Part shown: positions 15,598 to 64,000 of the stretch, in pieces
Layout of the letters: the number at the start of each line of letters is the position of its first letter
Position numbering within the stretch: position 1 is the first letter of the stretch
Assembly (NCBI GenBank): GCA_963733855.1
Contig: CAVTEL010000011.1
Location: 31,691 to 95,690, forward strand
Origin: an uncultured Actinomycetes bacterium
Lineage (GTDB): Bacteria > Actinomycetota > Thermoleophilia > Gaiellales > Gaiellaceae
Length of the DNA: 64,000 nt
Direction: 5' to 3'
Position numbers and translations under genes: made by a program
Notes under the pieces: model-generated
Seen by the model: only the letters and a program-made list of their open reading frames with translations
Databases searched by the model: none
What the model was told of the DNA's origin: nothing

Positions 15598-15621
15598 GGG
15601 GACAGGATCAATCCTGTCCCC
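15598..15621. other. perfect palindrome GGGGACAGGAT-CA-ATCCTGTCCCC
   Basis: 11-bp arms between the phosphatase stop (15596) and ATG 15622. No U-tract follows. Confidence 0.6.
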
Positions 15622-18245: not shown

Positions 18246-18807
18246 ATGAGCGGCCGTCTGAAGCTCGCGGCCCAGGGTCTCTCCGTCGCGCTCGTCGCCG
18301 GGCTCTTCGCGCTACTCGTCTGGAAGGTCGCGACGCAGGAGGAGGGCGCGGCGCGCAAGCTCGGACGCGGCGAGATCGTCAGCGCGCCCAACTTCCGCCT
18401 CGATCGGCTCGACGGGCAGGGGAAGATCTCGCTCGCCGAGTACCGCGGCCGCCCCGTCGTCGTCAACTTCTGGGGCTCGTGGTGCGACCCGTGCAAGGAG
18501 GAGGCGCCCGTGCTCGAGGAGACCTGGCGGCGGTACAAGGATCGCGGCCTGGTCGTGCTCGGGGTCGACTTCCACGACCTCAAGGGCGCAGCGACGACGG
18601 TTCGCGCGCGAGAACGACATGAGCTATCCACTCGCCTACGACGGGCCGGGGAACACGATCTCCGACTACGGCGTCGAGGCTGCGCCGGAGACGTTCTTCG
18701 TCTCGCCCGACGGGAAGCTGGTCTGCGAGCGGCTGCTCGGCGGCGTCCACATCGAGCGGAACCGCCTCCGCTACGACGACTGCGTCCGGGAGCTGCTCGC
18801 CGCGTGA
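18246..18807 (+). CDS. TlpA/ResA-type thiol-disulfide oxidoreductase, one apparent frameshift
   Basis: TM anchor and thioredoxin motif NFWGSWCDPCKEE. The C-terminal half lies in ORF 18619..18807. Join near 18585-18600. Confidence 0.85.
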
Positions 18808-18812
18808 GCAAG

Positions 18813-18909
18813 CTAGTAACAGAGTGTCACTTGCCCTCCGCGGCCGCCGCTCCGGCTGTCCGAGAGCCGTTGCGCCGCTCGAGAAGCCTTGTAACACAGT
18901 GTTACTTGG
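18813..18909. repeat. paired-palindrome repeat element, copy A
   Basis: GTAACAGAGTGTCAC (18816-18830) and GTAACACAGTGTTAC (18891-18905) flank a GC-rich spacer. The 22-mer CTTGTAACACAGTGTTACTTGG is identical to 63163-63184. Confidence 0.75.
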
Positions 18910-19358
18910 TCGTGCTGGCGGTCGTCGTGCTCGCGCTGGGTATGCCGGCCGCGGCGAACGCTGCCTGTCCGACGCTCGCAGATCTCGAGGGGGAGGTGAT
19001 GTGCCCGCAGTGCAAGACGACGCTCGACCAGTCCGACGCGCCGGTCGCCCGGGACATCAAGCAGTTCATCCAGGCGCGGGCCGAGGCGTGCGTGCCCGAG
19101 GGGCAGATCAAGGACGAGCTGGTCGCGCAGTTCGGGCCCGCGGTCCTGGCCGCGCCTCCGCGCGAGGGCTTCCACTGGTTGGCCTGGCTGCTGCCGCTTG
19201 CCGGGCTGCTCGCGGGCGCCGTCGTGGTCTCGATCCTGGTCTGGCGCTGGAGCCGGCGCCGGCCGGTCGCGCAGCCGGTCGCGCCGCCCAACGGCCGGCC
19301 GCTGGATCCCGAGCTCGAGCGGAGGCTCGACCGGGAGCTCGCCCGCTTCGATGGCTGA
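18870..19358 (+). CDS. ccmH: cytochrome c-type biogenesis protein CcmH/NrfF-like
   Basis: Signal-like N-terminus, heme-handling CPQC motif (VMCPQCKTTLDQSDAPVA), C-terminal TM helix. Start uncertain (TTG 18870, TTG 18906 or GTG 18912) and lies inside or next to the repeat element. Confidence 0.75.
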   Translation: MRRSRSLVTQCYLVVLAVVVLALGMPAAANAACPTLADLEGEVMCPQCKTTLDQSDAPVARDIKQFIQARAEACVPEGQIKDELVAQFGPAVLAAPPREGFHWLAWLLPLAGLLAGAVVVSILVWRWSRRRPVAQPVAPPNGRPLDPELERRLDRELARFDG

Positions 19359-62948: not shown

Positions 62949-63105
62949 TTGAACGAGCCACGCGTGGTGCTGACTGCGCTGTCGCGCCCCATCGAGGCGA
63001 GCGATCCGTTCACGCGCGGCCATTCGGCCCGCGTGAGCGCGATCGCAGAGGTGATCGCGCGGAGGCTGAGCCGAAGGCGACTGCGCCGAGATCCGCGCCG
63101 CCTAG
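62949..63105 (+). pseudogene. truncated HD-GYP/HD-domain gene fragment
   Basis: LLNEPRVVLTALSRPIEASDPFTRGHSARVSAIAEVIARRL.. (end of ORF 62184..63128), then with a 1-nt shift ..EGDCAEIRAA*. The fragment ends before the HD metal-binding motif, directly at repeat copy B. Confidence 0.5.
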
Positions 63106-63107
63106 GC

Positions 63108-63184
63108 TTAGTAACACAGTGTTACTAGTCCCTCGAGCCGCTCGGTCAGCCGCCGCGCGCGGCTTGTAACACAGTGTTACTTGG
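63108..63184. repeat. paired-palindrome repeat element, copy B
   Basis: TAGTAACACAGTGTTACTA (19-bp palindrome, 63109-63127) and CTTGTAACACAGTGTTACTTGG (63163-63184) flank a GC-rich spacer. Ends 2 nt from the stop of the dehydrogenase gene. Confidence 0.75.
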
Positions 63185-63186
63185 CC

Positions 63187-64000
63187 TCAGAGCGATGACC
63201 AGACGTCGAGTTTCTGCTTCGCCCGGCGGATCACCTCGTCCGTGAACTCGCTCGTCGACGAGTGGCCGCTGAGGTCGGCCGTCCGGATCCCGTCCGCGAC
63301 CGCCTCGAGCGCGCCCTCGCGGATCGCCCGGCCCGCCTGCTGCGCCTGCTCCTCGCCGTAGCCGAGCAATGCCGCGGCCGCGAGGATCATCGCCATCGGG
63401 TTGGCGACGTTCTTGCCCTGGAGCGCGGGCGCGGTCCCGTGGGCAGCCTCGGCCATCACCGCGTCGGGCACGTAGTCGTCGTCGAAAGCCACGAGCAGCG
63501 ACTCGGCGCCGGCGATCGAGCCGAAGAGCGGCAGCACGAGGTCCGAGAGCACGTCTCCGTCACGGTTCAGCGTCGGGATCACGAGCGGCGCCCCGCTGGA
63601 CGTGACGAGGTAGGCGAAGGTCGCGTCGATCAGCTGCGGCTCGTACGGCACGTCCGGATGCCGCTCGGCCGCCGCATCCATCTCCTCCTTCAGCATCCCT
63701 TCGTAGACCGGGCTGACCGTGTACTTCGGCCCGCCGAACACCTTGGCGCTCGTCCGGTCGGCGAGCCGGAACGCAAACTCGGCGACCGAGCGGCAGATGC
63801 GCCGTTCGATGCGCTCGGTCCGGAACGCGACCTCCTCCTCGCCGTCGCCTTCGCGCCACTCCTTCGCGCCGTACGCGTCGCCGACCGCCATGCGCACGAC
63901 CGAGATCGGCGCGTGGACACCGCCCAGAGGGACCACGCCGGGAATGCGCCGGCCGGTCCGGACGATCACCTTTCCGCCGATCTCCTCCCGGATGAGCCGG
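63187..64000 (-). CDS. isocitrate/isopropylmalate dehydrogenase family protein (5' end outside window)
   Basis: ORF 63187..63969 continues in frame to the window edge. NRDGDVLSDLV, GSIAGAES, AHGTAPALQGKNVANPMAMILAAA. Confidence 0.85.
   Translation of the reverse strand, partial: RLIREEIGGKVIVRTGRRIPGVVPLGGVHAPISVVRMAVGDAYGAKEWREGDGEEEVAFRTERIERRICRSVAEFAFRLADRTSAKVFGGPKYTVSPVYEGMLKEEMDAAAERHPDVPYEPQLIDATFAYLVTSSGAPLVIPTLNRDGDVLSDLVLPLFGSIAGAESLLVAFDDDYVPDAVMAEAAHGTAPALQGKNVANPMAMILAAAALLGYGEEQAQQAGRAIREGALEAVADGIRTADLSGHSSTSEFTDEVIRRAKQKLDVWSSL

Follow-up and report, generated by a model that had tools for sequence, protein, structure and literature searches.

Repeats of the REP/REPIN type are known mainly from Proteobacteria and travel with an HUH transposase. 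REPINs of Pseudomonas and Enterobacteria are doublets spaced 71 or 110 bp apart around a non-conserved spacer, and the RAYT gene is flanked by its own repeats (PMC3116915, PMC3337134). Rickettsia palindromic elements (RPEs), about 100–150 bp long, have no known partner protein and lie in frame within housekeeping genes (PMC10969869). For Gaiella, Gaiellales, and Thermoleophilia, literature searches turned up no relevant description of repeats.

The DNA analyzed here, a stretch of 64,000 nucleotides termed the window, is C11:31691–95690 of the Gaiellaceae assembly G000 (1.83 Mb, 20 contigs, 69.8% GC, rated 59% complete). A first-pass annotation had described two palindromes in the tlpA–ccmH gap, GTAACAGAGTGTCAC at 18816–18830 and GTAACACAGTGTTAC at 18891–18905, with starts 75 bp apart and a GC-rich spacer between them (copy A). 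It had also noted that the 22-mer CTTGTAACACAGTGTTACTTGG is identical at 18888–18909 and 63163–63184, and that the second locus (copy B) is paired as well. Re-reading the sequence bears out each of these points, with copy B holding perfect palindromes at 63111–63125 and 63166–63180, 55 bp apart. At up to three mismatches the window contains four sites of the form GTAACA-N3-TGTTAC (eight strand-matches), for which shuffles predict 0.04. Copy A is probably a member of a family of miniature palindromic elements restricted to the Gaiellaceae, that is, inserted DNA whose palindrome is the putative recognition site of a small protein, here called ORF97.

The REPIN/RAYT partnership is the closest analogue. 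Like REPINs, the elements have paired palindromic ends at few fixed spacings (here 55 or 76 bp), a variable spacer, the capacity to form hairpins, and tens of copies at gene ends, and they combine long-term vertical inheritance with patchy copy number. A small partner gene flanked by the repeats, each partner lineage having its own repeat family, is a further likeness to REPIN/RAYT. Unlike RAYT, the partner here is a 97-aa predicted helix-turn-helix orphan without HUH or Y1 motifs that reaches four copies per genome. The ends are also perfect self-complementary palindromes with a 6-3-6 core, unlike those of REPINs, and a quarter of the copies are intragenic. With RPEs the elements share in-frame insertion and translation as an extra peptide (here xSNxxLLx or xVTxCYL, at domain borders), whereas most copies here are intergenic, the core is a palindrome of 21–23 bp resembling a protein site, and the host belongs to the Gaiellaceae and not to Rickettsia. 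The features expected of a MITE, inverted-repeat ends, small size, absence of coding capacity, and multiple copies, are all present, as are the insertion polymorphism and the longer gene-carrying version of IS-derived MITEs. Unlike those, the elements show no target-site duplication that could be seen and no recognizable transposase, and each “end” is itself a palindrome.

The sites matS, SBS, NBS, and parS, recognized by MatP, SlmA, Noc, and ParB, are dispersed palindromes bound by a small dimeric protein, tolerated in genes, and conserved across species. They are not inserted DNA, they are unpaired, and they do not bracket the gene of the binder, which is single-copy and universal in its clade. 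The present family resembles them in its tens of sequence-specific palindromes, found also inside genes and conserved across species, and differs in being inserted as extra DNA, paired around a spacer, and arranged in brackets around a multi-copy ORF97 gene.

About 50 copies of the palindrome occur in the incomplete 1.83-Mb genome of G000, on all larger contigs. Exact matches to GTAACANNNTGTTAC number 47, and a reversed control pattern has none in the whole assembly; confinement of the motif to the two loci of the window is thereby excluded. The full repeat unit reads c-WW-GTAACA-NNN-TGTTAC-WW-g (21–23 bp), with the three central bases free. Against this family consensus the left palindrome of copy A, which had been called degenerate and does have two mismatches to the core, departs only by a T to C change in TGTTAC. 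The sites form 22 pairs in two classes of start-to-start spacing, 54–56 bp (n = 16) and 75–78 bp (n = 6), which lie 21 bp or two helical turns apart. Seven further sites appear to be single, and in two of them the partner has been spoiled by a 1-nt deletion. Spacers are 40 or 61 bp long and GC-rich, and their oriented alignment yields a weak common consensus only. Copies of the 76-bp class are nevertheless homologous from end to end (copy A matches C19:115478–115596 at 74% and C15:50852–50950 at 72%), and the spacer therefore belongs to the repeated unit. Judged by eye, the central triplets within a pair are the same in nine cases and reverse-complementary in two, a weak tendency. A link of pair orientation to the upstream gene was considered and dropped, with seven same and four opposite by eye giving no signal. 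An apparent third site 384 bp from a pair on contig C4 proved to be a chance site with two mismatches inside an acyl-CoA-ligase-like gene.

Copy A belongs to the 76-bp spacing class and occupies 18809–18907 (borders ±3 bp). Upstream lies a tlpA/resA-like thioredoxin gene with a WCDPC motif (18246–18807, forward strand), downstream ccmH with its CPQC motif (18870–19358, forward strand). In only 4 of 38 congeners searched, the closest relatives of G000, the interval 18350–19350 finds a full-length match (G054, 96%; G052, 94%; G051, 93%; G001, 84%), and in the remaining congeners the match stops exactly at copy A. Twenty tlpA–ccmH junctions were recovered, of which the alignment shows 19. The distance from anchor to anchor is 248–254 bp in the five carriers, G000 included, and 129–149 bp in the 15 others. 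At the empty junctions the tlpA stop overlaps the ccmH start as GTGA or ATGA, and the CcmH signal peptide MRLLLTVVAALALAGPAAAACP... follows directly. The counterpart in the window is the GTGA at 18804–18807 (forward strand), where the tlpA stop TGA (18805–18807) overlaps the ancestral ccmH GTG at 18804. In the carriers, 99–102 bp are intercalated behind GTGAG (window 18808), with the extended palindromes as borders. Relatives that lack the element thus exclude the possibility that it is simply conserved coding or promoter sequence. The left palindrome (18816–18830) has the one mutated half-site base, which reads TGTTAC in the orthologues of G052, G051, and G001; the right palindrome (18891–18905) is perfect. 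The GC-rich spacer (18831–18890) evolves fast except for GAGAG..TTG, being 83% identical to its orthologues versus 92% for the flanks and 97% for the half-sites. Scans for sigma-70 promoters and terminators at copy A returned no match.

With the overlap split by the insertion, the present ccmH start must lie either inside the element or upstream of it. The first-pass annotation had proposed TTG 18870, with a signal peptide encoded in part by the element. GAGAG-N3-TTG (18862–18872, forward strand), a Shine-Dalgarno-like sequence with a candidate start, is kept in all five carriers. It is followed by an Arg-rich stretch (LRRSRS, LARRRR, or LRRARR) and LVTxCYL, likewise kept, while other spacer positions diverge by up to 30%. 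This conservation strengthens the proposal and makes a start at TTG 18870 plausible, although the sequence leaves the choice of start undecided. A ccmH starting there would take from copy A both the region that binds the ribosome and the beginning of its signal peptide, which would come partly from the right palindrome (LVTQCYL). The frame from the old GTG 18804 is also open through copy A in all five carriers; since every carrier has another open frame there as well, the open frame is uninformative about translation.

Copy B, of the 55-bp class, occupies 63106–63185. On one side is the stop (TAG 63103–63105) of a remnant HD-GYP-type gene, on the other that of a convergent gene (TCA 63187–63189). 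The site is empty in G011, where the stop of the full HD-GYP-type gene abuts the convergent stop (TAG|CTA). An element of about 80 bp sits exactly there in G000 and G054, and a decaying copy in G001. The HD-GYP-type gene (window 62950–63105) is a remnant in both G000 and G054, with a shared internal deletion of about 350–470 bp that removed the HD domain, and its native C-terminus (AEGDCAEIRAA*) persists there in another frame. The deletion lies upstream of copy B, and the gene was therefore not cut by the element. G011 and G001 have the gene in full; G003 carries another internal deletion and an SDR gene inserted as well. A further pair, at C18:330379, is missing in G011 and G001 and again lies between two stops, and the pair in the biotin carboxylase gene adds 54 bp relative to G011, G020, and G009. 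The pairs represent inserted DNA, and its borders coincide with the palindromes. No target-site duplication was seen in the filled and empty comparisons of copy A, copy B, and C18:330379, whose flanks are 84–91% identical, so that a duplication of 1–2 bp could escape notice.

Positions relative to genes were tabulated from GC3-based ORF calls, with a Pfam check of about twenty genes and hand correction for single-base assembly indels. Six pairs lie between convergent genes and none between divergent genes, the lone apparent divergent case falling inside a DUF2071 gene. Between tandem genes, most elements keep within –4 to +31 bp of the upstream stop regardless of how far away the next gene is, and in about ten cases the element supplies the stop codon, as TAA within GTAACA or TAG within cTAG. 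The neighboring genes have no functional theme. Of the 29 elements, seven or eight fall within genes and keep the frame. The palindrome lacks stops in two of its three frames, which read xSNxxLLx or xVTxCYL, and the elements add 7–31 residues within enzymes such as biotin carboxylase and QueA. The in-frame copies are located between Pfam domains, the biotin carboxylase pair lying between CPSase_L_D2 (ATP-grasp) and Biotin_carb_C. Others are a pair in queA, singles in the CoaBC linker, dnaE, wecB, and the DUF2071 protein, and copy A in the 5′ end of ccmH; the wecB palindrome is in frame in G052, G054, and G001 as well. With a genome-wide family, sharp filled and empty borders at the palindromes, and a place at gene ends and not at promoters, the REP/BIME- or MITE-like repeat offered by the first-pass annotation stands. 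Its alternative of a paired promoter operator fails on the divergent and convergent counts.

The palindromes nevertheless behave as protein-binding sites would. Over 14 orthologous element comparisons, the 12 half-site bases show 96.7% identity and the 150-bp flanks, mostly coding, 92.3%, compared with 82.6% in the spacer and 77% at the three central positions; the comparison used kin genomes and is therefore not a formal test. The arms are conserved in sequence and show no covariation. This pattern fits sequence-specific recognition by a protein better than an RNA hairpin. Decaying copies occur at copy B of G001 and coaBC of G011.

The single palindromes in wecB and dnaE are not clearly insertions. 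Genomes without the motif hold an unrelated segment of equal length (±3 nt) at these places, which makes them equal-length replacements without net gain, and an origin in situ or by patch replacement fits them better than transposition. At the wecB position of G020 (L145, G020:C7:324300–324318) stands another, GC-rich perfect palindrome, GTCCAGGGG-TCTGA-CCCCTGGAC, which has three near-identical copies in G020 (among them C6:82740 and C7:114915) and one each in G013 and G009. An ORF97-family gene was not found in these three genomes. The palindrome at the G020 position may reflect a hot spot, patch replacement, or evolution in situ.

Elsewhere in the genus, an ORF of about 97 aa, ORF97, is flanked by two palindromes 372–417 bp apart. 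One palindrome lies 50–62 bp upstream of its start and the other 14–49 bp past its stop. All ORF97 loci examined are bracketed in this way except that of G017, where both palindromes are upstream. The gene is present in 28 of 39 genus assemblies with 1–4 copies per genome, which occur in either orientation and are spread over at least five different loci. At one locus between convergent genes, the ORF97 unit (~500 bp) is found in six genomes, while G010, G019, G011, and G045 lack it and have only ~20–30 bp between the stops; G016 retains a degenerate solo palindrome there. In G003, an ORF97-unit locus (L127) is filled on contig C2 and empty on C3:15087–16878, the two being 86–89% identical, which may reflect paralogy or the presence of two strains in the bin. 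The ORF97 family is absent where palindromes are absent or nearly so (G013 and G020 with none, G009 with one). No ORF97 gene was found in the 59%-complete G000 assembly, whose nearest relatives carry two or three, nor was one detected in several palindrome-rich assemblies, such as G015 (21 palindromes) and G001 (19), all of them incomplete.

ORF97 is under purifying selection, with a median dN/dS of ~0.2 over 78 pairs. Searches against Pfam, NCBIfam, PHROGs, PDB sequences, plasmids, and phages gave nothing significant. The predicted structure has a confident three-helix N-terminal domain (pLDDT 76–91) and a conserved C-terminal half (VLLDVAFRxRPP..) without a confident fold. The best Foldseek matches of the model are the helix-turn-helix DNA-binding domains of TnsB and MuA, at non-significant E values of ~0.9–7, and this resemblance is suggestive only. 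No catalytic or transposase signature was found in the protein, which has neither an HUH motif nor Y1 similarity. A unit of 400–520 bp with the same palindromic ends as the short elements exists, and its 97-aa product has no transposase signature. The short spacers were considered as deletion derivatives of this unit, an idea that was set aside with 11 short BLAST matches against about five expected from shuffles. The palindrome upstream of ORF97 adjoins promoter-like sequence, and autoregulation through it is likely.

A profile search gathered an ORF97 family of 372 clusters at 50% identity. Among diverged homologues, a given gene always has one and the same type of palindrome on both sides. 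Type A, GTAACA-N3-TGTTAC, was read on contigs L092 and L094; type B, TTGTGTTGA-N-TCAACACAA, on L093, L095–L097, and at the gene of G098 itself in L105; type C, CTTAGTGATGA-C-TCATCACTAAG, on L098; type D, CTTGTGGCTC-N-GAGCCACAAG, on L124; and type E, TTGTGATGA-C-TCATCACAA, on L125. R31, P45, Y47, and R51 are invariant throughout the family, and the residue after the invariant Pro-x-Tyr in helix 3 tracks the type, being Glu in A, Ala or Ser in B, C, and E, and Val in D. Protein lineage and palindrome co-vary.

Copy numbers are uneven. Type A has 0–52 copies per genome among 24 congeners. Across the family, 28 of the 70 genera sampled carry it (27 of 69 without the unpublished genome G285, which has seven copies and on which no conclusion depends), the range being 0–47 copies. 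In other genera its pairs are spaced 65–94 bp, with ORF-sized spacings of 370–401 bp. The motif was found only in Gaiellaceae among the genomes searched, the class-level search covering the type B pattern. Type B has 62 copies in G098, from another genus, and none in 200 other genomes of the class. At least four of the 19 type B copies examined lie between convergent genes and others at gene ends; one call inside an ORF, when checked, was intergenic.

The explanation we favor is as follows. As the comparisons show, the element is extra DNA that entered the 4-bp overlap of the tlpA stop and ccmH start in the common ancestor of G000 and its closest relatives, and sister copies inserted right behind stops, between convergent genes, or in frame in permissive gene linkers. 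A dimeric helix-turn-helix ORF97 of about 97 aa would recognize the palindrome that brackets its own gene, and such binding by ORF97 dimers is likely. The pairs without an ORF would be non-autonomous relatives of the ORF97 unit; that they are, and that ORF97 is needed for their spread, we put forward tentatively and with some doubt. The protein has no recognizable catalytic domain and so may supply site recognition only. Elements would survive only where promoters and protein folds stay undisturbed, and such survival at harmless places would produce the bias toward stop codons and linkers. At tlpA–ccmH, translation of ccmH would now be initiated from element sequence, which would also encode the first residues of the signal peptide.

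A bolder version holds that palindrome-ORF97-palindrome (~400–520 bp) is a mobile element complete in itself, of a new type and the smallest known. Its helix-turn-helix protein, which has an invariant Tyr and invariant Arg residues and is not a DDE, HUH, serine, or tyrosine recombinase, would catalyze the insertion or patch-replacement of its own palindrome or recruit host repair or recombination for it, would seed both pairs and singles behind stops and in gene linkers, and would have co-diversified with them into at least five specificities. This we regard as rather unlikely.

The palindromes could instead be host-function sites of a nucleoid-associated or chromosome-organizing protein, ORF97 or another, in the manner of matS/MatP, SBS/SlmA, or NBS/Noc, selected for benefit to the host and partly arising in situ, with mobility secondary. 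The better conservation of half-sites than of coding flanks across species agrees with this, as do the wecB and dnaE singles that replace an equal ancestral length without adding DNA, the sites within genes as well as between them, their spread over all larger contigs, and spacing classes that differ by two helical turns. The pairs, however, are clear insertions of 54–102 bp, their spacings vary between genera, and copies decay in some lineages (copy B of G001, coaBC of G011). A range of 0–52 copies among congeners, with none in many genera, is also unlike an essential organizer, and ORF97 is multi-copy at differing loci; host function as the primary role is an unlikely reading, though the weightiest of the rivals. 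Less likely by a wide step are promoter operators of a regulon, for example of a BldD-type box (nTnACnC(A/T)GnGTnAn), whose consensus the palindrome core fits. Paired, AT-rich, palindromic sites would suit operators, and so would the palindrome 50–62 bp before the ORF97 start beside promoter-like sequence. This reading is already contradicted by position, with no divergent and six convergent pairs, most elements close to the stop codon where the intergenic space is long, and copies inside genes; neighbors without a functional theme and the lack of a promoter-like match at copy A make it barely credible.

Gene-end position could also be explained at the RNA level, by bidirectional terminators or 3′-end stabilizers of mRNA. 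Elements directly behind stops and between convergent genes would suit such a role, as would the stable hairpins predicted on both strands. When folded, whole elements form a long hairpin on either strand at –40 to –46 kcal/mol (z –2.8 to –5), but they do so because the two ends are self-complementary, and the hairpins do not discriminate between the readings. There is no U-tract, the stems are AT-rich, the terminator scan of copy A found nothing, and an Rfam scan of the same copy gave chance-level matches only. It is the sequence and not the pairing that is kept, with a free center and arms without covariation, and termination would be harmful at the coupled junction in an operon and in frame in essential genes. 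An RNA role as the explanation is very unlikely, though terminator or stabilizer action could be a side effect at some loci. A classical REP/REPIN system mobilized by a RAYT, a Y1 HUH transposase, would account for two conserved palindromes at fixed spacing around a poorly conserved spacer, for the long-hairpin fold, and for an extragenic gene-end location with a repeat-bracketed partner gene and family-specific pairing (PMC3116915, PMC3337134). Genes with a Y1_Tnp domain (PF01797) do exist in these genomes. In G000 and G098, however, no type A or B palindrome lies within ~1.5–2 kb on either side of them, which largely refutes membership in REP/RAYT. The gene that is bracketed is ORF97, with no HUH motif, Y1 similarity, or Pfam match; GTAG-type REP heads are absent, and the palindromes are self-complementary with a sequence-specific core and not imperfect, covarying hairpins. 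Such a system is extremely improbable here. The Y1_Tnp (IS200/RAYT-like) matches of G000, at C20:188537–188785 and C7:2754–3029, fall within long open frames of 325 and 868 aa, and no AT-rich palindromes flank them.

On the favored reading of inserted palindromic elements, the syndrome of fixed-spacing doublets, gene-end positions, a repeat-bracketed partner, and lineage pairing recurs in a deep-branching, uncultivated actinobacterial family with a tiny orphan as the partner. Should ORF97 mediate the spread, short DNA would be moved or copied here by an undescribed route; should it do no more than bind, it would represent a new nucleoid or regulatory protein for which insertion creates the sites. 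In either case the elements rewrite gene ends, since they supply stop codons, have split the coupled tlpA–ccmH pair, and would donate the CcmH start and signal-peptide head. Annotators of Gaiellaceae MAGs should expect gene ends altered by elements and insertions within enzymes.

Several smaller observations concern the same genes. The tlpA reading frame of the G000 assembly is shifted by an extra C near 18595 (window 18590–18600); five relatives lack the extra base, and the frame was checked to be intact in G011. Single-base frame breaks also occur in wecB (a missing base) and queA of G000, and all three are probably assembly indel errors and not real pseudogenes. At the coaC–coaB junction, coaC of G009:C1 (L074) ends with TGA and coaB starts apart from it in another frame. 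In G000 (L058, C18:72505), G054, and G003, a palindrome occupies the junction, and coaC and coaB form one continuous frame (..QLLGPSNKLLLGKTVVVTAGG..). Elsewhere in the window, a perfect palindrome of 24 nt, GGGGACAGGATCAATCCTGTCCCC, lies at 15598–15621 between a phosphatase stop and the next ATG and is unrelated to the GTAACA family.
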